In this document: in pieces, positions 23,052-52,716 of the stretch
How the letters are laid out: the number at the start of each line of letters is the position of its first letter
How positions within the stretch are numbered: position 1 is the stretch's first letter
From: Muribaculaceae bacterium
GTDB lineage: Bacteria; Bacteroidota; Bacteroidia; Bacteroidales; Muribaculaceae
Length of the DNA: 64,000 nt
Direction: 5' to 3'
Assembly: GCA_045133615.1 (NCBI GenBank)
Contig: JBGUUQ010000051.1
Location: forward strand, 22,197 to 86,196
Position numbers and translations under genes: made by a program
Notes under the pieces: generated by a model
The model's database searches: none
The model's input: the letters and a program-made list of their open reading frames with translations, nothing else
What the model was told of the DNA's origin: nothing

Positions 23052-24197
23052 ATGGCAAACTTTCCAATAGGGGAGTTGCAACAACAGCGCACTCCCCTTT
23101 ATTTCTACGATCTAAGCCTCCTTCGACTCACTCTTGAGGCTATAAAAACATACTCTCCCGAACCTCACTACTGCGTTCACTACGCCATCAAAGCCAATGC
23201 CAATCCGGTCATTCTCAAAGAGATATGCGCCGCCGGATTCGGTGTCGATTGCGTAAGTGGGGGAGAAATCAATGCCGCACTCGCAGTAGGCTTCCCCGCC
23301 GACAAAATCGTATATGCCGGAGTAGGGAAGAGCGATTGGGAAATCAACATCGGTTTAGACAACGACATCGCATGCTTCAACGTCGAGTCAGCCCCCGAAC
23401 TTGAAATCATCAATCAACTCGCCGTAGCAAAAGGCAAAATCGCAAATATAGCACTCCGCGTCAACCCCAACATCGACGCACACACCCACCATTACATCAC
23501 CACCGGATTGGCTGAAAATAAGTTCGGAATCTCGATGGAAATGCTCGACACCATCGTTGACAGATGCCTCAATCTGCCCGCCATCAATCTCATCGGCTTG
23601 CACTTCCACATCGGCTCACAAATCACCGACAATGCCCCCTTCCAAATCCTCTGCGAGCGCATCAACGCTCTCCAAGACCATTTTGAAGCAAAAGGCATCA
23701 CCTTCCATAGCATCAATGTTGGAGGAGGTCTCGGCATCGACTACGACACCCCCGACGCAAACCCGATTCCCGACTTCAAAGGTTATTTTGAATCCTTCCG
23801 AAGCAACCTCAAACTACGCAGCAACCAACAGCTCCATTTCGAGTTGGGACGTTCCGTTGTAGCACAATGCGGTTCACTTATCACCCGCGTACTCTATGTA
23901 AAAGAAGGACTCGAAAAGAAATTTGCAATCGTCGATGCAGGTTTCACCGAACTCATTCGTCCGGCATTGTATCAGGCTCACCACAAAATCGAAAACATCA
24001 CAAGCAACGCCCCCGTCGACACCTACGACGTAGTAGGACCCATCTGCGAATCAAGCGACTGCTTCGGTGAAAAAGAGCAACTGCCAGGAGTCTCTCGTGG
24101 CGACCTTCTCGCATTGCGTTCCGCAGGAGCCTACGGCGAAATCATGGCATCGCAATACAACTGCCGCACACTTCCCGCATCATACTTCGCCGAATAA
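23052..24197 (+). CDS. lysA: diaminopimelate decarboxylase
   Basis: 381 aa. It has the fold-III PLP decarboxylase motifs (YAIKAN, HFHIGSQ, GGGLGIDY, GPICES.D), and lysC is adjacent. Confidence 0.9.
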   Translation: MANFPIGELQQQRTPLYFYDLSLLRLTLEAIKTYSPEPHYCVHYAIKANANPVILKEICAAGFGVDCVSGGEINAALAVGFPADKIVYAGVGKSDWEINIGLDNDIACFNVESAPELEIINQLAVAKGKIANIALRVNPNIDAHTHHYITTGLAENKFGISMEMLDTIVDRCLNLPAINLIGLHFHIGSQITDNAPFQILCERINALQDHFEAKGITFHSINVGGGLGIDYDTPDANPIPDFKGYFESFRSNLKLRSNQQLHFELGRSVVAQCGSLITRVLYVKEGLEKKFAIVDAGFTELIRPALYQAHHKIENITSNAPVDTYDVVGPICESSDCFGEKEQLPGVSRGDLLALRSAGAYGEIMASQYNCRTLPASYFAE

Positions 24198-24266
24198 AAT
24201 ATATTGGCGAATACGTCAAGGATAACAGATGTCGATAACGATTGCGAAGCAATCATTAGATAATAG

Positions 24267-24308
24267 CCGGGCATTGAAGTGCTTTCGTACTTCAATGCCC
24301 GGTATTTT
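24267..24308 (+). terminator. rho-independent terminator after lysA
   Basis: CCGGGCATTGAAGT-8 nt-ACTTCAATGCCCGG forms a perfect 14-bp stem followed by TATTTT. Confidence 0.75.
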
Positions 24309-24462
24309 CGCCTAAACAATTCAATTCTGAAAGAATTGTTATTGATTATCAATGAAATTACATCCATTCCTTTTGAAATTTCGAGCATCTCGAAGTCTGT
24401 TTGCAAATTAATGACACTATAACGAGAGAAATCACACAACAGGGCACACCTCCATAAGCCCT

Positions 24463-24495
24463 ATTTAACATAATGTAAGTTATAAGAAAAATATT
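24463..24495. repeat. attL: dif-like site ATTTAACATAA-TGTAAG-TTATAAGAAAA (+ATATT)
   Basis: It has 11-6-11 architecture. The left arm is the exact reverse complement of the E. coli dif XerD arm TTATGTTAAAT. Positions 24474-24495 are repeated perfectly at 31136-31157. Confidence 0.75.
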
Positions 24496-24496
24496 A

Positions 24497-24504
24497 TACA
24501 TTTG
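24497..24504 (+). promoter_or_regulatory. candidate -7 box TACATTTG at the left provirus end
   Basis: Matches TAnnTTTG, 29 nt upstream of the first provirus ATG (24534) and 2 nt inside the att repeat boundary. Confidence 0.4.
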
Positions 24505-24533
24505 CTCTCGTAATTCTAAAATCATTTACAAAC

Positions 24534-24740
24534 ATGAACAAACAAACGAAAAAACAAATCGATTTTGACCGCTACGACGCCGTCAATTTACGCGCTGAAC
24601 TTGAGATGCGCGATGATATTATTTTTGATTTGGAAGGCAAATATAATTCCCTTGTGATGTCTTACAACGCTTTGCTTGAATTTGTAAAAACCATTTTAAA
24701 TAATCCCGAACAATCAATTAAAATCTCAAAACTACAATGA
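24534..24740 (+). CDS. provirus small protein, 68 aa, helical/coiled-coil-like, function unknown
   Basis: It is the first ORF after the att site and candidate promoter, and its stop overlaps the next ATG (ATGA). Confidence 0.5.
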   Translation: MNKQTKKQIDFDRYDAVNLRAELEMRDDIIFDLEGKYNSLVMSYNALLEFVKTILNNPEQSIKISKLQ

Positions 24741-24901
24741 AACGTATCCAACTTGTATCCATCCTCATGGCAACCGCCAATCGTCCTCAAACAATCGCCT
24801 TTGAATCTTACGAAGCGTTCAGCAAGTGGCGCAACGAGAACTACAAAGACATTCTACAGTACACCGTCCAAGAAATCGACTTTGTATCAAATGAACTTTA
24901 A
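24737..24901 (+). CDS. provirus small protein, 54 aa (below the ORF-track size cut-off)
   Basis: My own translation is MKRIQLVSILMATANRPQTIAFESYEAFSKWRNENYKDILQYTVQEIDFVSNEL. It bridges the upstream ORF (ATGA overlap) and the M15 peptidase (11-nt overlap) without any gap. Confidence 0.4.
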   Translation: MKRIQLVSILMATANRPQTIAFESYEAFSKWRNENYKDILQYTVQEIDFVSNEL

Positions 24902-25271
24902 GTATTTCGTACCCGCAGAGTTTGAGTATTCAGAGACCGCAAAACAATTAGGTATCAACAACAAGATACCTAATTGCTTGTGGCTCAACCTACAAAACCT
25001 CGTTCTAACGGTCCTCGACCCCGCTCGTGAGCAACTCGGCTGCCCCATTCGAGTAAACAGCGGTTACCGCTCTTTTGAACTCAATAAAGCCGTCAAAGGT
25101 GCTAAGAACTCCTACCACATGCAAGCCCGCGCTGCCGATATTGCCCCCATTGCCTATCGCAACACCTCTGAAGAATGGCAAAATAAACTTGACCGCCTTT
25201 ATGATATTCTTCAGCAACTCCCCCACACTGAATTAATTAGATATCCAAATTTTATACATGTAGCCTTATGA
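24891..25271 (+). CDS. peptidase M15 family (zinc D-Ala-D-Ala carboxypeptidase-like), putative endolysin
   Basis: VNSGYRSFELNKAVKGAKNSYHMQARAADI ... FIHVAL matches the SGYR-N-GG-S-H-G-A-D ... HV metal-ligand pattern of M15A/M15_3 peptidases. The start is moved to the ATG at 24891 (MNFKYFVPAEF); the track start at 24753 is a TTG in the region occupied by the 54-aa ORF. Confidence 0.75.
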   Translation: MNFKYFVPAEFEYSETAKQLGINNKIPNCLWLNLQNLVLTVLDPAREQLGCPIRVNSGYRSFELNKAVKGAKNSYHMQARAADIAPIAYRNTSEEWQNKLDRLYDILQQLPHTELIRYPNFIHVAL

Positions 25272-25339
25272 AAAAAATCATCTCAATTCTCAACTTCATC
25301 ATCAAGATTTGTAAAGCAATCTTATCCATTTTCAAATGA
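25268..25339 (+). CDS. 23-aa cationic amphipathic/hydrophobic micro-ORF (MKKIISILNFIIKICKAILSIFK)
   Basis: My own translation. The ATG overlaps the peptidase stop (ATGA) and its stop overlaps the Rep ATG (ATGA), so it exactly fills the junction. Confidence 0.3.
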   Translation: MKKIISILNFIIKICKAILSIFK

Positions 25340-26940
25340 AACTCGAAAACTTTATAAGTAACTGCCGACAACCCCAAATCATCTACCGTAATGGACGGAG
25401 TATCTCCGTTCGTTGTGGTAGATGTCCTGATTGCCTCGCCTCCCGTTCCGCTCACCTCACTCAAATGTGCGTATCAGAGCAACGTAAATCTTTTGCTACC
25501 TTTTTTGCTACTCTCACCTATAACGAGTATAACATACCCCGCGCCCATGTTCTCCGTGAAACGCGTGATGATGGACGCTTACGAGTTACTTATATAGATA
25601 AAACCTCACGCCCAACCAAAACCCGCGGATTTAAGCTACTCCCCGAATATAATACCCCTCTCGCCTCTTTCGATGTTGCCGACCCCGCCAACTTCAACGA
25701 CTTTATACAAAAATCTTCAATATTACCCAAATATGCCACAAAGAAACAAATACAATACTACAAGACACATGAAATTGTTCGCTATATCCGTAAAAAGGAC
25801 ATACAGAACTTTTTTAAGCGCTTACGCTTCCGTCTTTCTCGCCTTGGCTACTCGCCGATTACGTTCTACGCTTGCGGTGAATACGGGCCCGACACCTTCC
25901 GTCCACATTTCCACATCTTGCTACACGTCTATGACTCCGAAACTTCCGCCATCATTGAAAAATTTGTGCGTGAAAGTTGGAAACTTGGAACTGTACGTAA
26001 ATTTTCCGCTGTTACCAAACCTTCGGACGTCTCAAGCTACGTTGCGGGCTATGTCAATTCCTTTACTCACCTCCCTCGTTATCTTAGGTTTGATGTCCTC
26101 AAGCCTTTTTCGTCGCATTCCGTTTACTACGGTACTTCGACTTTCGCACCACTTCGAGACTATCTTTATGAAAATCCCGACTGCTCCGCTTTTGAACATG
26201 ATGTACGACTACCTGACCAAACTGTTCATTACTTCCCTACCGCTTCGCTTATGCGTAGAATATACCCCCGATGCTACAACTATGACCGTCAAACTGATAC
26301 GGACCTACTTAAAATATATACATGCTTCACGAAACTATCACAAACGTACAATACAGACAAATGCACCGACCTCTCCTACTACCTCCTTACAGACTCCGAC
26401 AACTTCTACAATAGAACCCTCCTTAACCTCCTCGACATAGGAACCCCCCAACAATCCCCCTACTACTCCCTCTCTACTCTATCTAATAATTACTCCTCCC
26501 TCAATATAGATTTAATCCCCACTTCATGGGACCACTTCGCTACTCTCACCGAGAGTGAAATCGACGAATCGGTTTCACTCTCCTACCAACGTAAAATCTT
26601 TTCTCGTGTCTACTCCACTATTCTAATGTCCAAAAACTTCATAGAATGGAACTGTCAAAACTACTCTCCCCGCACCGTCTTGTCACTCATCAAGCAACAC
26701 TATCAAAACCACAGACTCGACCAACTCCGCCAACAACTTGAAGCACTTCAAGAATATAACTTAATCACATGTAACGATGACTACTCACTATTTTACCCCG
26801 CTTCCTCGACTACCGACCATTACAACTCTTTACTCTCATCATCTTCTTATATCAAGCACATCAACCACCAAAAAGATGTAAAGTATGAAAAAATGATTAA
26901 ACACAAACAACAAAATGACGCTAACTTAATATTTGTATAA
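25336..26940 (+). CDS. Microviridae replication initiation protein (VP4 / gpA-like rolling-circle Rep)
   Basis: 534 aa. It has an N-terminal CGRCPDC zinc-finger-like motif, motif I FFATLTY, the HUH motif HFHILLH (25906-25926), and a double-Tyr motif SYVAGYVNS that mirrors phiX174 gpA YVAKYVNK. Confidence 0.9.
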   Translation: MKLENFISNCRQPQIIYRNGRSISVRCGRCPDCLASRSAHLTQMCVSEQRKSFATFFATLTYNEYNIPRAHVLRETRDDGRLRVTYIDKTSRPTKTRGFKLLPEYNTPLASFDVADPANFNDFIQKSSILPKYATKKQIQYYKTHEIVRYIRKKDIQNFFKRLRFRLSRLGYSPITFYACGEYGPDTFRPHFHILLHVYDSETSAIIEKFVRESWKLGTVRKFSAVTKPSDVSSYVAGYVNSFTHLPRYLRFDVLKPFSSHSVYYGTSTFAPLRDYLYENPDCSAFEHDVRLPDQTVHYFPTASLMRRIYPRCYNYDRQTDTDLLKIYTCFTKLSQTYNTDKCTDLSYYLLTDSDNFYNRTLLNLLDIGTPQQSPYYSLSTLSNNYSSLNIDLIPTSWDHFATLTESEIDESVSLSYQRKIFSRVYSTILMSKNFIEWNCQNYSPRTVLSLIKQHYQNHRLDQLRQQLEALQEYNLITCNDDYSLFYPASSTTDHYNSLLSSSSYIKHINHQKDVKYEKMIKHKQQNDANLIFV

Positions 26941-26942
26941 CT

Positions 26943-28769
26943 ATGGCTAATAAACTTTTTCAAGAACTAAACTTAAAGCATAACCCCTCCCGTAACGGTT
27001 ATGACCTCTCCGCACCTTGCAACTTCACAGCAAAAGCAGGCGAACTCCTCCCAATCTTCCACCGTACCGTAATGCCCGGTGAAAAATTCCGCATCCGTAA
27101 ATCACACTTTACCCGCACCTCCTCCGTTAACACAGCTGCACAAACCCAAATTAAAGAGTACTTCGACTTCTTCTTTGTGCCTTACCGCTTACTTTGGAAA
27201 GAATCTCCCCAAATTCTCACCAACAATCTTAAGAACCCCGTTACCGCTACCTCTCCCACCTCCAACCGCTCTATCGGTACCGCTACCCCCCAATTCGACT
27301 ACGAAGCATGGCGCGACTCCGGACTTTCCATCCTTTCAACGCTTAAAAACGAATTCGGCTATAACCGTGCTGCCCTCTCCGCAAAGCTATTGAATCATCT
27401 TGGCTTCCCCTACATCTCCTCCGACCAAATTAAGGACCACGATTTCGATGACTACTACGGACCTCAGTACCTCTCCGCTTATCCCCTACTCGCGTATCAA
27501 TGCATCTATTATAGTTTCTTCCGTAACACACAATGGGAAACTAATCAACCCTATAACTATAATGTAGACTATCTTGGTACCTCCGCTATTCTTCCTATCG
27601 ACTTTGCCCTTTCCTCCTCATGGATTAACTATTGGAACAATCCTACCCTCTTTGACATCCGCTACGCCAACTACCCTAAAGACCTAATTTTCGGTGTATT
27701 CCCCGACGCCCAATTTGGTGACGAAGCCGTTGTCGACATCACCGGTTCTACTGTTGCATCCGACGACATTACCAACAATCCCGTAGTTGACTCCGACGGA
27801 AATGCCGTTACTGTCAATCCCAACGTTATCACCACAACCGCCGGCTCTTCAGATTCCCGCTATTACGCCAAAGGACTCCTCGACTCTACTGCCGACGGCT
27901 CACTTTATGCCCAACTCTCATCTCTCGAACAATCCTTGACCGCCAATTTCTCTATCCTTGAACTCCGCAAAGCACAATTTTTGCAAAAGTATAAAGAAAT
28001 CATCGGCTCCGGACGAAACGATTACAAAGCACGTATCGAAAAAATTTTCGGTACCTCCGTCTCTGACACCCTCGCCAATATACCTATCTACCTCGGTGGC
28101 GCCTCCTCCGTTGTCAAAATCTCCGAAGTAACAAACAGTAACCTCGCTGACGAAGACTCTGAAGCCCTTATCAAAGGAAAAGGTACCGGCTCAGGTGACT
28201 CCGACCTAATCGAATTTGAAGTACCCGCAGAACATGGACTAATCATGTGTATTTACCACTGCCAACCCGTTGTAGAATACTCCTTGACCGCCCTCCATTT
28301 CGACCTCGTTAAGACCGAATATGACGACTACGCCAATCCTATTTTCGACCAACTTGGCTTCGAAGAACTTCCGAGCTACTTCCTTGACTGTACAATCCCC
28401 CATGCTTATGATTATACTTCAGGCGGAACCCGCTACACAGGTGTAAATAACCTTGGCTACACTACCCGCTATTATGATTATAAGACCTCCCTTGGTCAAA
28501 CCCTTGGCGACCTCCGCGAAACTGATGTTAATTGGATAGCTCCCGTAAATCTCGACTATCTCAAAAACTACGTCTCAAACAATCGCTTATACATTAACGC
28601 CAACTTCTTTAAAGTAAACCCCGCTATCCTTGACCCCATTTTCTACCGTCAAGTTGGAACCTCCAACACTATCGACCGAGACTATGTAACCTCCGACCAA
28701 TTCAAAGTATTTTGCAACTTTGAAGTAAATGCAGTTCGTCCCCTCGACTACAACGGTGTACCCTATTAA
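26943..28769 (+). CDS. Microviridae major capsid protein (VP1 / F-like)
   Basis: 608 aa. The N-terminus (HNPSRNGYDLSAPCNFTAKAGELLPIFHRTVMPGEKFRI) follows the conserved microvirus capsid N-terminal pattern. Size and position after Rep are as in Bacteroidetes-associated microviruses. Confidence 0.88.
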   Translation: MANKLFQELNLKHNPSRNGYDLSAPCNFTAKAGELLPIFHRTVMPGEKFRIRKSHFTRTSSVNTAAQTQIKEYFDFFFVPYRLLWKESPQILTNNLKNPVTATSPTSNRSIGTATPQFDYEAWRDSGLSILSTLKNEFGYNRAALSAKLLNHLGFPYISSDQIKDHDFDDYYGPQYLSAYPLLAYQCIYYSFFRNTQWETNQPYNYNVDYLGTSAILPIDFALSSSWINYWNNPTLFDIRYANYPKDLIFGVFPDAQFGDEAVVDITGSTVASDDITNNPVVDSDGNAVTVNPNVITTTAGSSDSRYYAKGLLDSTADGSLYAQLSSLEQSLTANFSILELRKAQFLQKYKEIIGSGRNDYKARIEKIFGTSVSDTLANIPIYLGGASSVVKISEVTNSNLADEDSEALIKGKGTGSGDSDLIEFEVPAEHGLIMCIYHCQPVVEYSLTALHFDLVKTEYDDYANPIFDQLGFEELPSYFLDCTIPHAYDYTSGGTRYTGVNNLGYTTRYYDYKTSLGQTLGDLRETDVNWIAPVNLDYLKNYVSNNRLYINANFFKVNPAILDPIFYRQVGTSNTIDRDYVTSDQFKVFCNFEVNAVRPLDYNGVPY

Positions 28770-28791
28770 TTAACTTTTTAAATTATTCATT

Positions 28792-29232
28792 ATGGAAACA
28801 ACCACTTTACATTCATGCATGACTTACGGAATAAGTCATACTAAGGAATATAAACCCTCCGTAATTGCACCCTTTCTCATTGATAAAGATGCAGACGGTA
28901 AGTTTCTCAAGCGACATTCGGATGCTTATTTACTGCTCCGCCAAAACAGACTTCAGGAAACTATCGGTGCTGAGTCTATCCGCGCCTACCTCGACCAACA
29001 AAGAGCTATGCATGGTACCTCCCTCGTGCCTCACGACAATCTCTCCGACGAAGAACTTTTCAGCCTCATAGAGCCTAAGGAAGTCAACAACCTTACTACC
29101 GCTTATGAGTTTGCTAACTACCTTAAAGAGAATGGTGATAAGGTAAAAGCCAAACAAAAGGAAATCGTCAGTCGCAAAAATAGCCTCGCTGACTTCTACA
29201 AGAAAATCGGTTATAAATCTAACGACAAATAA
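28792..29232 (+). CDS. putative internal scaffolding protein (VP3-like)
   Basis: 146 aa. It is an acidic/helical protein located between the capsid and pilot genes. The assignment rests on position and size only. Confidence 0.45.
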   Translation: METTTLHSCMTYGISHTKEYKPSVIAPFLIDKDADGKFLKRHSDAYLLLRQNRLQETIGAESIRAYLDQQRAMHGTSLVPHDNLSDEELFSLIEPKEVNNLTTAYEFANYLKENGDKVKAKQKEIVSRKNSLADFYKKIGYKSNDK

Positions 29233-29234
29233 CT

Positions 29235-30566
29235 ATGCATATAATATTTCGTGACGAATATGGGACCATTGGTATCCGTGGCGATACCAAAGTCAATCTC
29301 TTCGGAATTGATGACCTTATCATTGGTTCTGCTGCTGCGTCTCTTGGCTCCTCGGTTATTGGTGGTATCTTCGGTTCCTCCTCTCAAAAAGACACCAACG
29401 CTACCAACTTGCAGATAGCCCGCGAGACAAACGAGCAAAACTACAAGATTTGGCAAGAACAAAAAGAGCATAATATCGACATGTTTAACATGGAGAATCA
29501 GGCGAATATCGACATGTTTAATATGGAGAATCAGGCAGCTATAGACATGTGGAATATGCAAAACGCGTATAATGACCCCTCGGCACAAGCCGAGAGGTTG
29601 TTAAACGCCGGTTTCAATCCACAACTCGCTCTCACTTCCTCGACTGCTGCCGGTAATGCTACCTCTGCTCCCTCCGTCGGTTCGCTCTCCTCCGCCTCCG
29701 CTACTCCCGCTCAAGCACCCACCATGCAAGGAACAACCGTTACCTCTCCATTTCAAGTCGCTTGGCAGAACGCTATGCAAGGTATTCAAACCATGGTAGA
29801 CGGCATTAATAAGGCTGCTCTAATGCGCCCTACGATTGACAATTTGAACTCCGGTACAAACGTCAACAACAATCAAGCCGTTAAACTTGGTTTTGAAGCT
29901 AACTATCAGAAGATAGTTAACAAATACGCTCCTACGCTCTTTGCTGAAGATGTTGAGACAAAGAAGTATAATAATGACCTTTTGGCTATGGATGTTACCT
30001 ACGGACGTGAAACGCGACAACTTCAAATAGCTTTGCTTCGTGCCGATTTTGCTTATAAGTCTTTAGACATAGAAAAGCAAACCATTCTTAACGCTTATCT
30101 CCCCGGCGAAAAGCAATTAGATATGATGACTAAAGGCGTGATGTATAGTAATCTTGTCCTCGATGGCAAAATGAAAGCTAAGGATTTGGCAAATTATTTC
30201 ACCCGTTATCTCATGGTAAATATTGCTCATGCTAATGCTCTTAACTCTCAAAAAGAAGGTCAAGACATTAAGAATGAATCCGATAAGCTTGACCTTGACA
30301 ATAAAAAAGCATTTCTCGAAGGATTTAAAACTAAGGAAGACGGAAAAATACTTGAATCGCTTGGCGGCTATTTGGCTGAATCTATGTTATTTGATGCCGA
30401 ATTGCAAGATACGTGGATTAATCCTACTCGTGAAATTGATGCTATTCACGATTATAAAACCGCTAAACGCCGTAAAACTGGAGTTACGGGCTATTTTCAT
30501 GATTTTATTGACCAATTTAGCGAATATGGACAAAAACTTTCCCCCTTTTTTAATTCGGCTAAATAA
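29235..30566 (+). CDS. minor capsid / DNA pilot protein (VP2 / H-like)
   Basis: 443 aa. It has a Gly/Ser-rich N-terminus (IGSAAASLGSSVIGGIFGSSS), Q/N-rich helical repeats and the conserved LLNAGFNPQLAL motif seen in gokushovirus and Alpavirinae VP2. Confidence 0.8.
   Translation: MHIIFRDEYGTIGIRGDTKVNLFGIDDLIIGSAAASLGSSVIGGIFGSSSQKDTNATNLQIARETNEQNYKIWQEQKEHNIDMFNMENQANIDMFNMENQAAIDMWNMQNAYNDPSAQAERLLNAGFNPQLALTSSTAAGNATSAPSVGSLSSASATPAQAPTMQGTTVTSPFQVAWQNAMQGIQTMVDGINKAALMRPTIDNLNSGTNVNNNQAVKLGFEANYQKIVNKYAPTLFAEDVETKKYNNDLLAMDVTYGRETRQLQIALLRADFAYKSLDIEKQTILNAYLPGEKQLDMMTKGVMYSNLVLDGKMKAKDLANYFTRYLMVNIAHANALNSQKEGQDIKNESDKLDLDNKKAFLEGFKTKEDGKILESLGGYLAESMLFDAELQDTWINPTREIDAIHDYKTAKRRKTGVTGYFHDFIDQFSEYGQKLSPFFNSAK
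29472..29570 (+). repeat. 33-bp tandem repeat inside VP2: two near-identical copies plus a degenerate third
   Basis: Copies at 29472-29504 and 29505-29537 differ at 2 of 33 nt and encode NIDMFNMENQA twice. 29538-29570 encodes the diverged AIDMWNMQNAY. Confidence 0.85.
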
Positions 30567-30580
30567 ATTATCTTTGTGGT

Positions 30581-30706
30581 ATGGATATTTTTTTAACATT
30601 TGGACCCTTTGTGCCTTTCTTGTTGCTCTTTGTGGTAATGATATTAGGCGCTATTTGGCTCATTATCATTTTGGTAAAAGCCATTATTAAAGAATTAAAG
30701 AAATAA
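30581..30706 (+). CDS. 41-aa single-pass membrane micro-ORF (holin-like candidate)
   Basis: My own translation is MDIFLTFGPFVPFLLLFVVMILGAIWLIIILVKAIIKELKK: one about 26-residue hydrophobic span and a Lys-rich C-tail. It starts 15 nt after the VP2 stop and is followed by a hairpin plus T-run. Confidence 0.4.
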   Translation: MDIFLTFGPFVPFLLLFVVMILGAIWLIIILVKAIIKELKK

Positions 30707-30726
30707 TCCCTACCCTTTACACTTCG

Positions 30727-30766
30727 GGCGCGCGCGTGCTACACGTGTGCGCCTGTTGTTTATTAT
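30727..30766 (+). terminator. GC-rich hairpin plus T-rich run ending the provirus gene block
   Basis: GGCGCGCGCGTG-cta-CACGTGTGCGCC forms a 12-bp stem with two G-T pairs, followed by TGTTGTTTATTAT. Confidence 0.5.
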
Positions 30767-30836
30767 CCTAAAAGTCGACAAATTGAGGGCTGATCAGCTT
30801 CAGCTCTCTCGATTTATTGGAATAAAACGGAACAAC

Positions 30837-30986
30837 GCGAAGCCCGTAAAAAGATAAAAAGCGAAGCGTCTCCATTTTCGGAAATAACACCGAGCGCGGA
30901 AGACCGCGCGAGACCTCTACGAAAATACGGACGGAGTGCATCCCGTCGAGCGAAGCGAGCGGGACCGCCCTACTCTGATGCGAAGC
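30837..30986 (+). repeat. four same-strand copies of GCGAAGC (30837, 30861, 30950, 30980)
   Basis: These are exact 7-mers read directly from the sequence. About 4 per strand would be expected by chance in the whole 64 kb. Confidence 0.8.
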
Positions 30987-31100
30987 CATTACACTTTTGC
31001 CCGAAAGGGTTCGCGGTTTGCTCTTGCTCCCGCGAACAATATTTCCTTGGCTTATTATAGCAAAAGTGACAGAAAAATATTACCTTTGTAAACTGCTCAC

Positions 31101-31122
31101 TCATGTTAAATTCATGTTAAAT
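31101..31122 (+). repeat. tandem 11-mer TCATGTTAAAT x2 (inverted XerD-arm-like half sites)
   Basis: There are two perfect adjacent copies. ATGTTAAAT is the reverse complement of the attL arm ATTTAACAT. The pair sits 2 nt upstream of the attR arm. Confidence 0.8.
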
Positions 31123-31124
31123 CT

Positions 31125-31157
31125 AATTAACCTATTGTAAGTTATAAGAAAAATATT
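31125..31157. repeat. attR: degenerate-arm dif-like site AATTAACCTAT-TGTAAG-TTATAAGAAAA (+ATATT)
   Basis: The central region and right arm are identical to attL. The left arm differs at 3 of 11 positions. Confidence 0.75.
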
Positions 31158-31254
31158 TCCGTCTCAACCGCGACAAAATTCACATCACCACCTCCACAAA
31201 TTGCATAACACACGAATTATCGTTATCTTTACATCGCAATTCTTATTTTGAATT

Positions 31255-31695
31255 ATGACGTTGCCCTCAAAAATCATATCAACACTTGTTTCCATTACAG
31301 TTGTGATGGCTTCATTGTTGCAATTTCATCACCACGATTGCGATGGCAACATTTACATTCATCTGACCACACTCGACGACATTGCGCTCGGATACTCCGG
31401 TCTGCACATTGACGAATGTAACCATTCCGATGACCATCACCACACCACAGATTGCAACGACCACGAAAATTGCGCACTTCACATCGCCATTTCCAAAGCC
31501 ACAAAACAAAGTCAGCAATCCGTTGCCTCCCCGTCATTCGACTTGTCATATATTTTGGCAGACATTCTTGAATTGCAAAAACCGCAAAATGAAACTCATA
31601 TTTCATACAATACACACATATTTTTCCTAATCTGCCCCAATTCGCAGTTACCCTCATTGCTGCGAGCACCACCGACAATCGCCCAATACAAATAG
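31255..31695 (+). CDS. small membrane-anchored His/Cys-rich protein (putative metal-binding accessory protein of the efflux operon)
   Basis: 146 aa. An N-terminal hydrophobic anchor is followed by HHHDCDG...HIDECNHSDDHHHTTDCNDHENCALH. The gene is immediately upstream of, and co-oriented with, the RND metal efflux genes. Confidence 0.6.
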   Translation: MTLPSKIISTLVSITVVMASLLQFHHHDCDGNIYIHLTTLDDIALGYSGLHIDECNHSDDHHHTTDCNDHENCALHIAISKATKQSQQSVASPSFDLSYILADILELQKPQNETHISYNTHIFFLICPNSQLPSLLRAPPTIAQYK

Positions 31696-31738
31696 TTATA
31701 TATCAACCACTTATCTACTAACCAAATTCTTTTTTTTC

Positions 31739-32947
31739 ATGAAACTACATATTTCTATCCTATCTATAGGACTTGCCTTGGCATGTCTTAGTTGCTCACA
31801 TTCAGCCAAAGACGATGGTCTGGGCCACGACCATAGCCATCATCATCACGAAGAACCCGCCCACACTCATGGTCATCACGAAGAGCCCGAAGGTCATCAC
31901 CACGAACACGAGCACGCCAAAGACGCTCACAGCAACGATGAAATCGTACTCGAACCCTCTGCTGCTCACCGTTTTGGCGTTCAGGTACAAACAATTACGC
32001 CTCGCGACTTCAACGAAATTGTTAAAGTTTCCGGACAAATCATATCCGCACCCGGCGACCAAGGTGTCGCATCTGCCCAATCGGCAGGCATCGTATCCAT
32101 CGCCGGCGGCATCACAGAAGGATGTCGTATCTCCGCAGGAACATCCATAGCACATATATCGGCACAAAAAATGGCTGGAGGCGATCCCAACGCCACCGCA
32201 AAAGCCAACTTAGATGCCACCAAGCGCGAACTCGACCGCATCACCCCTCTACATGCCGACGGCATAGTCTCCACCAAAGACTTCAATGCCGCCAAGCAAG
32301 CCTACGAACTCGCCCGCGCAGCATATTCCGGCAACTCATCCGGTAGCGCAGTTTCCTCCCCGATAGCCGGAGTCATAACCCAGATTCTCGTTCAGCAAGG
32401 CCAATTTGTCGAAGCCGGACAACCCATAGCCGTAATATCTAAAAACTCTCGACTCACATTACGCGCCGACCTTCCGGAAAAATACTACAACTTCCTACCC
32501 ACCATCACCACAGCAAATTTCCGCCCTTCCTACTCCGACTCAATCATATCATTAAGCAAAATCAACGGCACAGTCATATCCGCATCCTCCTCCGCTGCCC
32601 CGTCGCAGTCCGGATATATTCCCGTCTACTTCTCATTCGACAACGACGGCTCTGCCATTCCCGGCACATTTGCCGAGATATATCTCATCGGAGCCACCCG
32701 TCCAAACGCAATAGTCGTCCCTATCGAAGCCATCACCGAGCAGCAAGGCAAATACTACGCCTATGTCCGTCTCGATGAAGAATGTTACGAAAAACGCCTC
32801 GTTTCATTAGGCAAATCCAACGGAAGTGAAGTCGAAATTTTGTCCGGACTCAATATCGGCGACAACGTTGTCTCCCATGGAGCTATCATCGTAAAACTTG
32901 CCGAGTCAAGCGGAGTTATCCCCGAAGGACATAGCCATAACCATTAA
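31739..32947 (+). CDS. RND efflux periplasmic adaptor (CzcB/CusB-like) with a His-rich N-terminal tract
   Basis: 402 aa. It has a lipoprotein signal (LALACLSC), the tract HDHSHHHHEEPAHTHGHHEEPEGHHHEHEH, and then an MFP barrel-sandwich/beta-barrel region. Confidence 0.88.
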   Translation: MKLHISILSIGLALACLSCSHSAKDDGLGHDHSHHHHEEPAHTHGHHEEPEGHHHEHEHAKDAHSNDEIVLEPSAAHRFGVQVQTITPRDFNEIVKVSGQIISAPGDQGVASAQSAGIVSIAGGITEGCRISAGTSIAHISAQKMAGGDPNATAKANLDATKRELDRITPLHADGIVSTKDFNAAKQAYELARAAYSGNSSGSAVSSPIAGVITQILVQQGQFVEAGQPIAVISKNSRLTLRADLPEKYYNFLPTITTANFRPSYSDSIISLSKINGTVISASSSAAPSQSGYIPVYFSFDNDGSAIPGTFAEIYLIGATRPNAIVVPIEAITEQQGKYYAYVRLDEECYEKRLVSLGKSNGSEVEILSGLNIGDNVVSHGAIIVKLAESSGVIPEGHSHNH

Positions 32948-32959
32948 TGCCGTATCATC

Positions 32960-35900
32960 ATGCTTAACAAAATCATACGGTTTTCACTCAACAACCGCAT
33001 CATAGTCCTAATCCTTGCCGGACTATTGACACTCGCCGGTGTATTCGTTCTCACACGCACCGAAGTTGATATATTTCCCGACCTCAACGCCCCCACAGTC
33101 GTCGTAATGACCGAAGCACCGGGATTTGCGCCTGAAGAAGTCGAAAAACTCGTTTCATTCCCCCTCGAGACCTCCGTCAACGGAGCTACAGGCGTACGCC
33201 GTGTACGCTCATCGTCAGCGACAGGCTTCTCCGTCGTATGGGTAGAATTCGATTGGGGTACCGACATCTATCAAGCCCGACAGATTGTATCCGAAAAGAT
33301 TGCAAGCGTAAGCGAACAGCTTCCTCCAGGAGTCAACACCCCCACTCTTGGTCCGCAATCATCCATTCTTGGCGAAATCATGATTATCGGACTCACTGCC
33401 GATTCCACATCCATGAGCGATTTGCGCACACTTGCCGACCGCACCATCCGCCCGCGATTACTCGCCATCGGAGGAGTCTCACAAGTAGCCGTAATCGGAG
33501 GTGACATCAAAGAATACCAAATCCAATTGGCTCCGGAACGCATGAAACACTACAATGTAACCCTCGATGAGGTCACATCATGCGTAGAAGGCATCAACAA
33601 CAATGCTGCCGGAGGCGTACTCTACGAATACGGCAACGAATACATCATCAAAGGCGACGTAAACACCACATCCACCGAAGCCCTTGGCAAAGCCGTTATC
33701 CGCAGCGACCAACAAGGCACAATTCTCCTCGAAGACATCGCCACCGTACAGATTGGCAACAAAATGCCGCGACTTGGTGTCGCTTCCGTTAAGGCACAAC
33801 CCGCCGTACTCATCACCTGCACCAAGCAACCCGCCGTCGGCACCATCGAGTTGACCGAAAAGATTGAGCACGAACTCGCTTCGATGCAAAAAAATCTACC
33901 TCCCGACATCGTTGTATCCACCGACATTTTCAAGCAAAGCGACTTTATTGACAACTCCATCTCCAACCTACAGCAGTCGCTTATCGAAGGTGCCATATTC
34001 GTTATCATCATCCTCTTCCTCTTCTTGATGAACACGCGCACCACCATCATCTCCCTCGTCGCGCTCCCGCTATCCATCATCATCGCCGTACTCGTCCTCT
34101 ACTTCATGGGATTCAGCATCAACACCATGAGCCTCGGTGGTATAGCCATAGCCATTGGATCGCTTGTCGACGATGCAATTGTCGATGTCGAAAACGTCTA
34201 CAAACGCCTGCGGGCCAACCGCTCTCTGCCCGAAGAGCAACGCCGTTCCACACTCGACATCGTCTTCCACGCATCCACCGAAGTCCGCATGCCCATTTTC
34301 AACTCCTCCCTCATCATCATAGCGAGTTTCCTTCCCCTCTTCTTCCTCAGTGGCATCGAAGGACGCATGTTGATACCCCTCGGCATATCATTTATCGTCG
34401 CACTCATTGCGTCCACCATCGTAGCCCTCACCATCACCCCCGTCCTTTGCAGCTACATGCTCGGCACTCCGAAAGCCCTCAACTCTTTGGATAAAGAGCC
34501 GTGGACAACCACAAAACTAAAGGTCGGCTACACCAAAGTTCTGCAATGGTGCTTCGACCACAAACGCATTCTTCTTGGCGGGACTGGCGGATTATTCCTC
34601 CTCGCCGGTATTCTGTTCTTCACCCTCGGTCGAAGCTTTCTCCCCTCTTTCAACGAAGGTTCTTTCACCATCAACGTAAGCACCCTTCCCGGCATCTCGC
34701 TCGACGAAAGCGACCGCATCGGACGTGAAGCCGAGCAGATCATCATGTCCATCCCCGAAGTGCAGACCGTTGCCCGCAAGACAGGTCGAGCCGAACTCGA
34801 CGAACACTCGCTTGGTGTCAACGTCTCTGAGATTGAAGCCCCCTACATCCTCGACAATCGTTCGCGCGGAGAAGTCGTTCGCGAGCTCCGAGCTAAATTG
34901 TCCGAACTTCCCGGCGTAAACATCGAGATTGGGCAACCGATTTCCCACCGCATCGACGCCATGCTCTCCGGTACTGAAGCCCAAATCGCCATCAAACTAT
35001 TTGGCGACGACCTCAATCGGCTCTATTCCATCGGTAGCCAAATCAAAAAAGCGATATCCGATGTCGAAGGCATCGCCGACGTCAACATAGAGCAACAAAT
35101 CGAGCGTCCGCAACTCGACATCCGTCCTCGTCGCGAAATGCTTGCCAAATACGGAATCCCGGTCAACGAATTCACCCACTTCATCGATGTCACACTTGCC
35201 GGACAAGTTGTATCGCAGGTCTACGAACAAGGCTTACCCTACGACATCACCGTACGCCTCGACGACGACCGCCGCAACTCCATCGCCAAGATTTCCGATT
35301 TGATGATCGACAGCAACGTCGGTAAAATTCCCCTAAGCTATGTTGCCGACATCGTTTCAACATCCGGTCCCAACACTATCAACCGCGAAAACGTCAGCCG
35401 ACGCATCGTCATCTCTGCCAACGTCGACGACCGCGACCTCCGCAGCGTAGTCAACGACATCCAAGAGCACATCGCCGAACATATCGAACTCCCCGAAAAC
35501 TACTACATCACCTACGGCGGACAGTTTGAAAGCGAAGCCGAAGCCTCCCGCACACTGGCACTCACCTCCATCGGCGCACTGATTGTGATATTCATGCTCC
35601 TCTACCAAGAGTTCCGCAACATCCGTCAGTCGCTCATCATCCTCCTCAACATGCCGTTGGCCATGATTGGAGGCGTACTGATACTTTGTCTCACCTCCGG
35701 CGAACTAAATATTCCGGCTATCATCGGCTTCATCTCGCTTCTCGGCATCACCACCCGCAACGGCATGCTGCTCATGTCGCGCTACAACCATCTGTGCGAC
35801 GAAGGAATGCCACTGCGCCAACGCATCTTCGTTGGTTCCGCCGACCGTCTCAACCCCATCATCATGACAGCACTCACCTCGGCATTGGCACTCATTCCAA

Positions 35901-36055
35901 TCGCCCTGCGCGGAGGTGAACCGGGCAACGAAATCCAATCTCCGCTGGCAATCGTCATCCTCGGAGGACTGCTCACCTCTACCATTCTCAACGTATTGGT
36001 CGTTCCCGTCGTCTACTATCTCACATATCGAAACAAAGAAAACGTATCAAAATGA
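32960..36055 (+). CDS. CusA/CzcA-family heavy-metal efflux RND pump
   Basis: 1031 aa with 12-TM RND topology. The N-terminus (IIRFSLNNRIIVL) and motifs (GGIAIAIGSLVDDAIV..EN) are HME-RND-like. Confidence 0.92.
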   Translation: MLNKIIRFSLNNRIIVLILAGLLTLAGVFVLTRTEVDIFPDLNAPTVVVMTEAPGFAPEEVEKLVSFPLETSVNGATGVRRVRSSSATGFSVVWVEFDWGTDIYQARQIVSEKIASVSEQLPPGVNTPTLGPQSSILGEIMIIGLTADSTSMSDLRTLADRTIRPRLLAIGGVSQVAVIGGDIKEYQIQLAPERMKHYNVTLDEVTSCVEGINNNAAGGVLYEYGNEYIIKGDVNTTSTEALGKAVIRSDQQGTILLEDIATVQIGNKMPRLGVASVKAQPAVLITCTKQPAVGTIELTEKIEHELASMQKNLPPDIVVSTDIFKQSDFIDNSISNLQQSLIEGAIFVIIILFLFLMNTRTTIISLVALPLSIIIAVLVLYFMGFSINTMSLGGIAIAIGSLVDDAIVDVENVYKRLRANRSLPEEQRRSTLDIVFHASTEVRMPIFNSSLIIIASFLPLFFLSGIEGRMLIPLGISFIVALIASTIVALTITPVLCSYMLGTPKALNSLDKEPWTTTKLKVGYTKVLQWCFDHKRILLGGTGGLFLLAGILFFTLGRSFLPSFNEGSFTINVSTLPGISLDESDRIGREAEQIIMSIPEVQTVARKTGRAELDEHSLGVNVSEIEAPYILDNRSRGEVVRELRAKLSELPGVNIEIGQPISHRIDAMLSGTEAQIAIKLFGDDLNRLYSIGSQIKKAISDVEGIADVNIEQQIERPQLDIRPRREMLAKYGIPVNEFTHFIDVTLAGQVVSQVYEQGLPYDITVRLDDDRRNSIAKISDLMIDSNVGKIPLSYVADIVSTSGPNTINRENVSRRIVISANVDDRDLRSVVNDIQEHIAEHIELPENYYITYGGQFESEAEASRTLALTSIGALIVIFMLLYQEFRNIRQSLIILLNMPLAMIGGVLILCLTSGELNIPAIIGFISLLGITTRNGMLLMSRYNHLCDEGMPLRQRIFVGSADRLNPIIMTALTSALALIPIALRGGEPGNEIQSPLAIVILGGLLTSTILNVLVVPVVYYLTYRNKENVSK

Positions 36056-37236
36056 AACGAATCCTATTCTCCATATACTGCTGCGCCGCGACCGCCTGCC
36101 TCGCCGGAGCGCAATCATTCGACGCCTTGATTCGTCAGGTAGTCGAAAACAATCCGGAGATAATCTCCGCCAACGCCTCCGCCGAAAGCGAACTGCTCAA
36201 TCTGCGTAGCGAAAACAATCTCGCCGACCCCGAAATCGGATTTGAGCACATGTGGGCGCCCTCCGGTGTCGAAAACAAATGGAATGCCTCTATCAGCCAG
36301 TCATTCGACTGGCCGGGAGTTTATCAGGCCCGCAGCAAAGCCTATCGTAGCGCATCATCGGCAATGGATTACCTTCGTCAAAGTCGCTACATCGACAAAT
36401 CTCTCGAAGTAAAGCTCCTGTTCATCGACATCATCAACACCCGCAAATTGCTCGCCCTTTGTGATACAAGTCTCGATTTATTCTCCAACCTCCTCTCTCA
36501 TTATCAAAAAGGTTACGAGCAAGGCGAATTTACGCGACTTGACATCAATAAAATTCGCGTCGAGCAATTAAGCCTCACCCGTCGTCGCGCATCGCTTGAC
36601 TCACAACTCGAAGTCCTCAAAGGCTCCCTTACTGCTCTGAACGGCGGCAATGATTGTAGCGACATTCTCGCTCTTCTATCCGAATATCCCGATGAGCCGC
36701 TTCTCTCCATCGCCGACTACGAGCAGCTTCTTGCCACTCACGACCCGCAACTCAACTATCAATCATCGCTAATCGAGTCGCAGCAACACCTTGCCAAAGC
36801 TGCACAACTGAGCCGTTACCCCTCTTTCTCCATCGGCTATGCCCATGCCCGCGAAGAAGGACACTCGTTCAACGGCATCTCTCTCTCCGTCACCCTGCCG
36901 TTCTTCTCCTCTCGCCACAAAGCCAAAGCAGCCGAAATCATGCAGCAATCCTATGTTGCCGACCTCAACGGAGTAAAAGTCGACCGCTCCGCCACAATGT
37001 TCGCCGACCACGCGATAGCCACCTCCCTCTTCCGCGAAATAGCCGACTACCGCACTATTCTCGACGACGGCTACCTCTCTCTCTTGCGCAAAGCCCTCGA
37101 CGGCGGAGAAATGACTCTCATCAGCTACATACAGGAAGTCAACTTCTATCAAGAAGCCGTAGCCGACATGCTCGAAGTCGAATACCAATACCACCTCACA
37201 TTGGCTCGACTCAACCGCTACGCGACAATTCCGTAA
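36052..37236 (+). CDS. TolC-family outer membrane efflux protein (CzcC-like)
   Basis: 394 aa with a signal peptide and two OEP repeats. An ATGA overlap couples it to the pump gene. Confidence 0.85.
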   Translation: MKRILFSIYCCAATACLAGAQSFDALIRQVVENNPEIISANASAESELLNLRSENNLADPEIGFEHMWAPSGVENKWNASISQSFDWPGVYQARSKAYRSASSAMDYLRQSRYIDKSLEVKLLFIDIINTRKLLALCDTSLDLFSNLLSHYQKGYEQGEFTRLDINKIRVEQLSLTRRRASLDSQLEVLKGSLTALNGGNDCSDILALLSEYPDEPLLSIADYEQLLATHDPQLNYQSSLIESQQHLAKAAQLSRYPSFSIGYAHAREEGHSFNGISLSVTLPFFSSRHKAKAAEIMQQSYVADLNGVKVDRSATMFADHAIATSLFREIADYRTILDDGYLSLLRKALDGGEMTLISYIQEVNFYQEAVADMLEVEYQYHLTLARLNRYATIP

Positions 37237-37261
37237 CCGAATACTCCTCAATCCACTCATC

Positions 37262-37291
37262 AGCCTTCTCAATTTTGAGGAGGCTTTTTTT
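37262..37291 (+). terminator. rho-independent terminator after the efflux operon
   Basis: AGCCTTCTCAA-tt-TTGAGGAGGCT (one G-T pair) is followed by TTTTTTT. Confidence 0.65.
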
Positions 37292-37360
37292 CATCCCTAC
37301 ATGAACAATCCGACACCCCTCCGCGTTTTACTTGCAAACAAACAAAAAAACGTATCAACA

Positions 37361-51744: not shown

Positions 51745-52098
51745 ATGTTTGCTATGGTATCACGTATTAAAAATATTATAGCATACTCTAATCTTTCTAT
51801 TAGAGCATTTGCTATTAAGATTGGGGTTAATCAACCAACCTTAGATAGAATGTTAAAGGGTATAAATGCCTTAAACCTAAATTGTGTTATTGGCATACCT
51901 TCGGCTTTTCCTGAGATTTCTTCAGAATGGCTTATGAGGGGGGTCGGCGAAATGTTATTGACTGATACTCCTAAAAAAGAAGATGTGGAAAAAACGGAAC
52001 GCCTTGTAGACACCATTACGATACTGCAATCTGCTCTCAACGAAAAGAGCAAAACGATTCAAGCAATAGAACAAGAAATATCACGTTTAAAATCATAG
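51745..52098 (+). CDS. helix-turn-helix (XRE-like) protein, paralogue of 44776-45312, with a coiled-coil C-terminus
   Basis: MFAMVSRIKNIIAYSNLSIRAFAIKIGVNQPTLDRMLKG.....IPSAFPEISSEWLMRGVGEM. This is the real gene hidden at the 3' end of the spurious 574-aa track ORF 50374..52098. Confidence 0.7.
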   Translation: MFAMVSRIKNIIAYSNLSIRAFAIKIGVNQPTLDRMLKGINALNLNCVIGIPSAFPEISSEWLMRGVGEMLLTDTPKKEDVEKTERLVDTITILQSALNEKSKTIQAIEQEISRLKS

Positions 52099-52101
52099 GA
52101 T

Positions 52102-52710: not shown

Positions 52711-52716
52711 TGGCAC

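Follow-up and report, generated by a model that had tools for sequence, protein, structure and literature searches.

How can a virus that carries no recombinase enter a bacterial chromosome, and does it ever leave? The question is raised by a 64,000-nucleotide stretch of DNA from a Muribaculaceae bacterium (contig JBGUUQ010000051.1; we call the whole stretch the window). Within positions 24463-31157, the window holds a microvirus genome of 6,662 bp that is integrated in a Muribaculaceae-like Bacteroidales chromosome, between host lysA and a metal-efflux operon. An earlier note, made from the letters of the sequence alone, had described an integrase-less provirus here, and we found its main elements all where it had placed them. 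Judged by its genes, the element is an intact member of the Microviridae. It is also recently mobile: the empty host site (attB), the phage site (attP), and the two prophage junctions (attL and attR) are all seen in public data. We think it quite likely that two recombinases of the host, XerC and XerD, integrate the double-stranded replicative form, reversibly, into a dif-type site adjacent to lysA.

The two ends of the insertion share a sequence. The perfect direct repeat of 22 nt that the note had listed (24474-24495 and 31136-31157) is there, with a spacing of 6,662 nt; by our own estimate, the chance of a perfect pair of 22-mers within 9 kb is about 1e-6. The repeat widens to 35 nt at 91% identity (24461-24495 and 31123-31157). 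Both attL and attR are 28-nt sites with the 11-6-11 architecture of dif. The E. coli dif site is GGTGCGCATAA-TGTATA-TTATGTTAAAT (PMC2731167); when its XerD arm, TTATGTTAAAT, is reverse-complemented, it agrees with attL's host arm, ATTTAACATAA, at 11 of 11 positions. The note had mentioned dif-like flanks as known from other proviruses, and the resemblance here goes further: the layout is complete, and one arm is the canonical XerD arm. Reading the outer, host-derived halves of the two sites gives attB as ATTTAACATAA-TGTAAG-TTATAAGAAAA, and reading the inner, phage-derived halves gives attP as AATTAACCTAT-TGTAAG-TTATAAGAAAA. Because attP is the same as the host site for 22 nt, attL reproduces attB without a mismatch (28 of 28 nt are identical to the reconstructed empty site). 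The XerD-type arm of attR, AATTAACCTAT, has three mismatches to the host arm.

The exact major capsid protein (VP1) of this phage is present on seven public contigs, and dozens of contigs, at 98-100% identity to the window, came from exact look-ups of the flanking and terminal genes. One Logan contig of 12.4 kb (L021, from SRR33263756) starts with TAACATAA + TGTAAGTTATAAGAAAAATATT + TCCGTCTC: the host left arm is joined straight to the host right flank, which is the empty attB, and the contig then continues at 100% identity to window 31158-37695. Another contig from the same sample (L003) opens with the same 30-mer and then enters the phage, which is the occupied site. This shared start is the signature of a branch in a k=31 assembly graph between the occupied and the empty allele. 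An ENA scaffold from another sample (L039) has the remaining junction: its first 120 nt match window 31104-31157 followed by 24496-24561 at 120 of 120 positions, with 31157 joined directly to 24496. This is the junction of a circle or of a tandem array. The earlier note had suggested looking for an empty site and for a circular junction, and both exist.

Some contigs were not what they appeared to be. L003 (6,670 nt) is not a circular genome, as it has no terminal overlap and corresponds to window 24466-31135. The "split Rep" (rolling-circle initiator) in L039 is a scaffold gap of 10 Ns, not a frameshift. Another contig (L020), which looked like an empty site in its gene table, is an ordinary attR contig.

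The features of the element and its flanks are listed here in window coordinates (aa, amino acids; ORF, open reading frame).

23052..24197, + strand: host lysA, diaminopimelate decarboxylase family, the left flank (PLP decarboxylase domains in the profile search)
24267-24302: hairpin 3' of lysA
24463..24495, + strand: attL, the 28-mer ATTTAACATAA-TGTAAG-TTATAAGAAAA at 24463-24490 plus ATATT (from the repeat and from comparison with the empty site)
24497..24504, + strand: TAnnTTTG box TACATTTG, candidate main phage promoter
24534..24740, + strand: ORF of 68 aa, without a family match
24737..24901, + strand: ORF of 54 aa, doubtful as a gene
24891..25271, + strand: M15_3 peptidase, 126 aa from the ATG (Pfam, PHROGs); the open frame begins with TTG at 24753
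25336..26940, + strand: Rep (VP4), rolling-circle initiator, 534 aa (profiles and motifs)
26943..28769, + strand: VP1, major capsid protein, 608 aa (Phage_F, phrog_514)
28792..29232, + strand: 146-aa protein at the position of VP3, internal scaffolding (synteny)
29235..30566, + strand: VP2, DNA pilot protein, 443 aa (pilot-protein PHROGs)
30581..30706, + strand: hydrophobic single-pass protein of 41 aa, candidate holin-like
30727..30753, + strand: GC-rich 12-bp hairpin, candidate terminator or complementary-strand origin
31010..31072, + strand: conserved cis module, a stem-loop followed by CTTGGC...ATAG...AAAGTGACAG at 31046-31072 (covariation)
31101..31122, + strand: two tandem copies of TCATGTTAAAT, XerD-arm look-alikes
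31125..31157, + strand: attR, the 28-mer AATTAACCTAT-TGTAAG-TTATAAGAAAA at 31125-31152 plus ATATT (phage XerD-type arm, central 6-mer, host-side arm)
31255..36055, + strand: host right flank, with a His/Cys-rich 146-aa ORF, a membrane-fusion protein (31739-32947), and an RND (resistance-nodulation-division) pump (32960-36055)

The phage ORFs are all on the + strand, in the order 68 aa, 54 aa, peptidase, Rep, VP1, 146 aa, VP2, and 41 aa, and the gaps in the window's ORF list are at most 65 nt. The note's single strand and tight packing hold, but its count of nine ORFs does not, as gene callers on identical public contigs call eight. We compared the ORFs to profiles from Pfam, PHROGs, and PADLOC (the small ORFs at a threshold as permissive as E <= 10). 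VP1 matched Pfam's Phage_F at 2.4e-21 (score 76.6, with a cut-off of 25 bits) and phrog_514 at 1.6e-51 over its full length (residues 3-607), and it has 1,791 capsid homologues at E <= 1e-10. Its matches in the PDB are microvirus capsid chains only: 8DES, which we take to be a gokushovirus capsid, at 1e-9, and 9CGM at 6e-4. phiX174 F was not matched in this PDB search. Rep matched PF23343 at 7e-13 and phrog_942 at 2.9e-32, and its translation holds FFATLTY (motif I), HFHILLH (HUH), and YVAGYVNS (motif III, with two tyrosines), as in a rolling-circle Rep of superfamily I. VP2 has no match in Pfam and matched two PHROGs for pilot proteins for DNA ejection (phrog_31272 at 2.5e-10 and phrog_8689 at 5e-9). 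Thus, the capsid and pilot calls of the earlier note are borne out, the capsid and Rep searches that it had proposed both gave strong hits, and the motifs that it had read, including AGFNPQLAL, were every one found in the translations. The matches to lysA on the left and to the membrane-fusion protein and the RND pump on the right agree with the insertion site that it had named. VP2 also holds a 33-nt tandem duplication (29472-29537, 94% identity) that encodes NIDMFNMENQA twice, and a third, degenerate copy (IDMWNMQNA) is next in the protein.

The peptidase matched Peptidase_M15_3 at 9e-16 and the endolysin family phrog_894 at 1.9e-28 and was also gene-called on another contig (L001); from these matches, it is a probable endolysin. 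An M15_3 peptidase was reported in Alpavirinae, located between VP2 and VP4 (Rep) (Roux 2012). The 146-aa protein had no profile match in Pfam or PHROGs, and it is syntenic with the "internal scaffolding protein" genes of PQ006785.1, MZ089810.1, PQ006772.1, and PQ006725.1, which makes it a candidate for the VP3 scaffold. The ORFs of 68, 54, and 41 aa matched no family, even at E <= 10. An identical 68-aa protein is called on 18 public contigs. Whether the 54-aa ORF is a gene is doubtful, since a stop codon interrupts it in L037, a variant at 98% identity. A small ORF equivalent to the 41-aa ORF is present in relatives, and the 41-aa protein is a candidate for a holin-like lysis partner of the peptidase. 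Across all of the phage ORFs, these searches found no integrase, transposase, repressor, or defence family, and here too the note was right.

We saw no sign that the phage is decaying. The core ORFs are uninterrupted in the window phage and in five relatives. Between the window and the 98.2%-identical variant L037, we counted 21 synonymous and 7 non-synonymous codon changes in Rep, and 25 and 5 in the part of VP1 that was sampled (46 and 12 in total). Changes that are mostly synonymous indicate purifying selection and not decay. The earlier note had reasoned that a block that was fixed in all relatives and visibly decayed would speak against its view; given the intact ORFs, the synonymous changes, and the empty site, this block is neither.

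Where else is this kind of phage found? The host's lysA is most similar to those of Muribaculaceae metagenome-assembled genomes (MAGs), at 64-77% identity. Four other proviruses (L008, L206, L207, and L208), whose VP1 proteins are 63, 60, 55, and 52% identical to the window's, sit in the homologous slot between lysA and a small ORF with the efflux operon, and their Rep and VP2 are intact. The lysA genes of these hosts are 98, 82, 86, and 66% identical to the window's, respectively. Two independent assemblies show a relative at 74% identity as a circle, a unit of 6,681 nt whose ends overlap by 55 nt in one and by 30 nt in the other; L006 and L007 self-close with overlaps of k-mer length. The 74% relative is also seen as a head-to-tail dimer (L005), with host flanks of 32 nt and 38 nt outside its att 28-mers. 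The copies do not differ from each other, and they meet at the circle junction. L005 ends exactly one 55-mer from the points at which attB and attL, and attB and attR, diverge, so attB was also in that sample. The "dimer" may be the assembler's path through a graph of integrated, circular, and empty forms.

The closest annotated relatives are bajarodmic viruses 584, 575, and 536 (PQ006785.1, PQ006772.1, and PQ006725.1) and Microvirus mar64 (MZ089810.1), from rodent and marmot faeces, with VP1 at 46.5-52.9% identity; the window's VP1 is at most 53% identical to that of any deposited genome. These deposited circles, like the circular contigs of the 74% relative, are consistent with the small circular single-stranded genome in a T=1 icosahedral virion that is typical of Microviridae. 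All five free genomes have a dif-like 28-mer at the same position, within the non-coding stretch between VP2 and the small ORFs. We reached the close VP1 clade through exact-protein look-ups only. Single-protein scans of genome contigs and viral contigs, and an alignment-based scan of metagenome contigs, gave no relatives of VP1, and an alignment-based scan of IMG/VR gave only distant ones (30-37% identical, on gut contigs of about 6 kb).

Comparison of the lysogens shows how the phage and host sites correspond. The left host arm is ATTTAACATAA in five of six lysogens and ATTTTACATAA in the sixth. The central 6-mer varies across host lineages: it is TGTAAG for the window and L008, and TCGTAA, TCTCTA, TGCCTA, or TATCAA for the others. 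In all six lysogens (L005 included), with five different 6-mers among them, the central 6-mer of attL equals that of attR. A free attP was observed directly for two of the phages, and its central 6-mer agrees. The right arm of the phage follows that of the host with 0-3 mismatches, and the left arm of the phage is always off by 1-4 nt.

The host site has the same form in genomes that lack the phage. The uninfected L045 has ATTTAACATAA-TAGTGA-TTATGGGCAAA by lysA, with identical synteny and nothing inserted. Uninfected genomes of Ca. Homeothermus (L048), with the same ATTTAACATAA arm, and of Heminiphilus faecis (L058), with ATTTAACATAA-TGTCGA-TTATGGGCGCC, have a site by lysA in the same orientation, and another uninfected genome (L063) has a lysA-adjacent site whose left arm has one mismatch. 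A 528-aa ORF beside the Heminiphilus site, considered as a possible Rep, is a host HerA-like ATPase. L045 (JAMPAQ010000001.1), which has the closest lysA (76-77%), is labelled "Pseudoflavonifractor sp." (Firmicutes), and the other close matches are Bacteroidales, including Muribaculaceae; L045 is probably a mis-binned or mislabelled MAG. According to Carnoy and Roten (PMC2731167), the XerD-type arm of genuine dif sites does not vary, and their central region is uniform among members of one species but changes from species to species. The lysA-adjacent site shows this pattern across several genera, with a conserved XerD-type arm and a species-specific central 6-mer. The 6-mer is the same in two hosts whose lysA genes are 98% identical and differs in hosts at 66-86%.

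Next to the att sites, we found other conserved elements. TAnnTTTG is the -7 promoter motif of Bacteroidetes. A TAnnTTTG box begins 4-9 nt after the right arm of the att site in 10 of 10 genomes (the chance is about 0.009 per genome). In the window, the box TACATTTG is 7 nt after the att arm and 30 nt before the first ORF, and this placement makes it a candidate for the main phage promoter. Another box, at 30569-30576, is between the VP2 stop and the 41-aa ORF, and in most relatives, too, a box lies only a few bases from the VP2 stop (L125 at 3542, L209 at 3542, L210 at 3399, L006 at 4733, L008 at 13465, and L206 at 13544), which suggests a separate promoter for the lysis-type gene. A box at 31081-31088 (also in L008 at 14407 and in L207 at 14103) faces across attR towards the host's His-rich 146-aa ORF and the RND operon, and it could drive host genes in lysogens.

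The 430-nt non-coding stretch before attR folds far better as single-stranded DNA than shuffled sequences do (z = -5.3 for 30700-31160). The GC-rich hairpin at 30727-30753 lies directly 3' of the last ORF and is kept in relatives with an altered stem sequence. A minus-strand ORF of 73 aa (30768-30989), which is called in some contigs, has no family match, and its region fits a conserved DNA structure better than a gene. Further along, a stem of 7 bp (31010-31016 paired with 31030-31036, with a loop of 13 nt) is followed by CTTGGC...ATAG...AAAGTGACAG. Across 10 genomes, five of the seven pairs have changed on both sides. The covariation score is 0.47 versus 0.15 after shuffling (0 of 500 shuffles reach the observed value), and slid controls are at or below 0.25. 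In the prophage, this module is found close to the right end, at 36-346 nt upstream of attP; it is a candidate for the rolling-circle origin or for a packaging signal. In L208, a unit of about 57 nt (AAAATGACAGCA...AATAGGGTG.AGCGCCAACAGTAAC) is repeated about 3-4 times at 14203-14440, between the AAAGTGACAG motif and attR, as if the candidate origin region had expanded in the manner of iterons. The region of attP itself has no special fold as single-stranded DNA (z = 0.30). Thus, a folded, CTXphi-like attP is unsupported, and a double-stranded attP is more likely. Rfam gave no match within 24100-31400 at E <= 1.

Just before attR, the two tandem copies of TCATGTTAAAT (31101-31122) each match the XerD arm TTATGTTAAAT at 10 of 11 positions, in inverse orientation to the att arm and 2 nt upstream of it. 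L008, which uses the same host site, has TTATGTTAAAT plus TGATGTTAAAG at the equivalent place. These may be accessory or decoy XerD half-sites. They are not a general feature of the group: of 10 genomes, just the window and L008 have them, and the other eight have no look-alike of the XerD arm with up to two mismatches (the background rate is 0.04 per 100 nt).

From the sites and their neighbours, we infer the involvement of XerC/XerD, the double-stranded substrate, and the roles of the origin, the promoter, and the lysis genes. A phage without a recombinase would bring its own mimic of dif, the 28-bp attP. The host's XerC and XerD would recombine the attP of the double-stranded replicative form with the conserved dif-type site just downstream of lysA, and the identical central 6-mer would allow complete strand exchange. 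This would leave the host with attL, a perfect dif, and with attR, in which the XerD-type arm is weakened. As both att sites survive, the reaction should be reversible, and lysogens, cured cells, and circles would therefore coexist in populations. Rep would carry out rolling-circle replication of the circle, with the stem-loop/AAAGTGACAG module as the probable origin, and release would probably be via the M15 peptidase and the 41-aa membrane protein. The earlier note had suggested that the element might be inducible. That term may not apply, given that the sole experimental analogue excises continuously without induction. A more speculative extension, which we consider doubtful, is that the central 6-mer and the XerC-side arm of attP co-evolve with the dif of each Muribaculaceae host, as a host-range barcode for lysogeny; that Xer binding or the integration state gates the nearby promoter, so that lysogeny is controlled without a repressor; and that the box at 31081 drives the efflux operon.

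Several observations weigh against Xer-mediated, reversible integration. The host-side right arm, TTATAAGAAAA, is distant from the consensus of the XerC arm, which is a proteobacterial consensus. The GC skew keeps its sign across the window (24 kb to the left of the site and 33 kb to the right) and across the 20-kb relatives, and genes are co-oriented across the att site, so the site is no more than a candidate for the terminus dif. The skew is a weak test for a terminus dif because dif lies 39 kb from the maximum of the skew in E. coli and up to 78 kb from it elsewhere (PMC2731167). The assignment to XerC/XerD comes from the sequence of the site and from the precedent of the E. coli phage EC6098, not from identified xer genes in the host. 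The evidence for the attB and attP junctions consists of assemblies and not of reads; the attP junction could come from a tandem array instead of a free circle, and the empty site could come from a strain that was never infected instead of from excision. L003 has its right end at 31135, the border of the phage arm and the central region in attR, which is 22 nt short of the expected end at an attR/attP graph branch and is unexplained; its left end fits the attL/attB branch. Also unexplained is a Logan contig (L040, SRR27391359_110925) that matches window 24239-24842 at 100%, a span with attL, the 224 nt on its left, and the first phage ORF, and that has minus-strand LOG-family and DUF4271 genes upstream instead of lysA. 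A rearrangement in that strain, a second context in the genome, or chimerism of the contig could explain it. Around the hairpin at 24267-24302, many Logan contigs end at 24268 and resume at 24321.

If the phage is active, its progeny might be made mainly without excision: Rep would nick the origin of one integrated copy and terminate at a tandem second copy, as in CTXphi, and the attP junction would come from such arrays. L005 reads as just such a dimer, with host flanks on both sides and an internal junction like that of a circle, and L039 has a junction and not a closed circle. The placement of the candidate origin module, 36-346 nt before attP and towards the prophage's right end, also invites comparison with the arrangement in CTXphi. 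Yet the copy in the window is single (from attL to attR), both ends of L005 are exactly one 55-mer from the points of divergence from attB, so that the dimer may be an assembler path, and L006 and L007 self-close with overlaps of k-mer length. Furthermore, unlike in CTXphi, both att sites keep an intact central region that permits excision, and attP lacks a single-stranded fold (z = 0.30). We think that production from tandem arrays is rather unlikely to be the main route, and it is not mutually exclusive with integration by XerC/XerD. We give less credence still to a phage function, either the HUH Rep or a small ORF, as the catalyst of integration and excision, with the likeness to dif being a coincidence or a targeting cue. 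In other systems, HUH endonucleases are able to carry out site-specific integration, and no family is assigned to three of the small proteins (68, 54, and 41 aa). Such a catalyst would have to account for the exact 11-6-11 geometry, for crossover identity that always spans the central 6-mer, for an attP that follows the host-specific central region in six of six lysogens, and for the perfect XerD-type arm in empty host sites. Moreover, the 54-aa ORF is broken in L037, and the only microvirus of this type that has been tested requires XerC/XerD.

We think it very improbable that what we see is a prophage remnant, in decay or domesticated, that makes no virus and has gone to fixation in the host lineage. 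The element has no regulator or recombinase of its own, and many samples have 100% identical copies with the same flanks, as would be seen under vertical inheritance. Against this, the core ORFs are intact here and in five relatives with mostly synonymous changes, the empty site (L021) and the circle junction (L039) exist, the genome that is closest among those without the phage keeps the synteny and has no insertion, and relatives were deposited as circular genomes from faecal samples. We find it scarcely credible that a free microvirus was misjoined to the chromosome by an assembler. The shared core is only 22 nt, and metagenome assemblers can misjoin at repeats, but the attL and attR junctions recur in independent assemblies from different assemblers (Logan k=31, ENA k141 and k119, and scaffolds), and divergent relatives are at the homologous site in four other host backgrounds. 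As the junctions recur at values of k above 22, the insertion is not an assembly chimera.

Two observations concern the host DNA around the element. An ENA scaffold (L034) lacks 38 nt of host intergenic DNA between attR and the 146-aa ORF (window 31207-31244); strains thus vary in what is probably the promoter region of the efflux locus. Also, window 52001-54000 has a GC content of 0.345, versus about 0.45-0.55 around it; the GC skew is slightly positive there, and gene orientation flips from + to -. This block could be a foreign island, or it could bear on the position of the terminus relative to the att site.

What does this locus add? The class of provirus (2011), the M15_3 peptidase of Alpavirinae (Roux 2012), and the reversibility of XerC/XerD-dependent integration in E. 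coli (2020) are known already, and the conceptual picture is unchanged by the window phage. New are the Muribaculaceae-like host, a distinct clade (VP1 at most 53% identical), and the use of one slot by five divergent phages, as well as the documentation of all four junctions, the match between phage and host central regions in every case, and the conserved promoter and stem-loop elements. A literature search gave no paper that addresses microvirus prophages of Muribaculaceae in its title or abstract. The first isolated microvirus of Bacteroidota, phiHBP1 (December 2025), showed no lysogeny. Integrase-less microvirus proviruses of Bacteroidales have been known from sequence since 2011 and none has been studied by experiment, and this locus is a concrete and apparently live system: the exact phage is in many public samples, the cis elements (attP, the promoter box, and the covarying stem-loop) are defined, and the comparison offers a testable rule, that the central 6-mer of the phage must equal that of the host. 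The host range of temperate microviruses is extended to the Muribaculaceae, a dominant family of the rodent gut.

Among known systems, the nearest are the Bacteroidales proviruses BMV1-7. As the earlier note had stated, Krupovic and Forterre (2011) described these as integrase-less and with dif-like flanks; their gene order is Rep-VP1-VP2 (PMC3091885). The window phage shares with them a Bacteroidales chromosome, Rep directly upstream of VP1 with VP2 downstream, the lack of a recombinase, intergenic insertion between imperfect direct repeats that resemble dif (the core is 13 bp in BMV1 and 12-22 nt here), and a VP1 that is closer to gokushovirus VP1 than to phiX174 F. It differs in size (6.66 kb with an M15 peptidase, versus about 6.1-6.3 kb), in host (Muribaculaceae-like, versus Bacteroides or Prevotella), and in location (adjoining lysA, whereas BMV1 is between mutS and a glycoside hydrolase gene). 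The 2011 study compared an empty site for BMV1 only, and here we have four junctions and a comparison of central regions over six lysogens. The Alpavirinae, the subfamily proposed for these proviruses and not an NCBI taxon, match in the order VP4(Rep)-VP1-VP2 and in having Bacteroidales hosts; we liken the phage to them by gene order and description.

The deposited relatives PQ006785.1, PQ006772.1, PQ006725.1, and MZ089810.1 have the same gene order and measure 6.6-7.2 kb. After VP2 they, too, have a long stretch without genes; a TAnnTTTG box follows their dif-like 28-mer, and the stem-loop/AAAGTGACAG-type module is present in some version. In contrast to the window phage, they were deposited as free circles, with no peptidase annotated and no host or lifestyle assigned. 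The central regions of their att sites differ (TATGTA, TATGCA, and TAGGTA), which points to hosts of other species.

The E. coli gokushovirus EC6098 is the experimental precedent: it needs XerC/XerD and the dif motif of the phage, and its integration is reversible (Kirchberger and Ochman 2020; PMC7062461). Like the window phage, EC6098 is an integrase-less microvirus with a phage-borne dif motif, and its prophage lies between two dif sites, of which the bacterial-type one is conserved and the phage-type one varies more, above all in its XerD arm. Since neither site is lost, integration can be reversed and lysogens occur beside cured cells, which matches the attL and attB that are seen in one sample here. 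EC6098 belongs to another subfamily and has a genome of 4.3-4.7 kb, VP5 and VP8, no peptidase, and a proteobacterial host. Its site is the canonical dif of the terminus, and its dependence on XerC/XerD is experimental, whereas we infer it here.

The integrative mobile elements exploiting Xer (IMEX) of Vibrio, such as CTXphi, VGJphi, and TLCphi, are also single-stranded DNA phages with a rolling-circle Rep and no integrase that use the host's XerC/XerD at dif and form tandem arrays (in part from the summary in PMC3091885, in part as general background). They are filamentous Inoviridae. The window phage shares with them the lack of a recombinase of its own, and the dif architecture, with crossover identity over the central region, is seen across six lysogens and five free genomes. 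CTXphi has a folded single-stranded attP and integrates irreversibly, while the attP of the window phage has no such fold and its central region matches completely (6/6). Overall, the reaction in the window appears closer to that of VGJphi, or to a plain dif-by-dif reaction between double-stranded sites.

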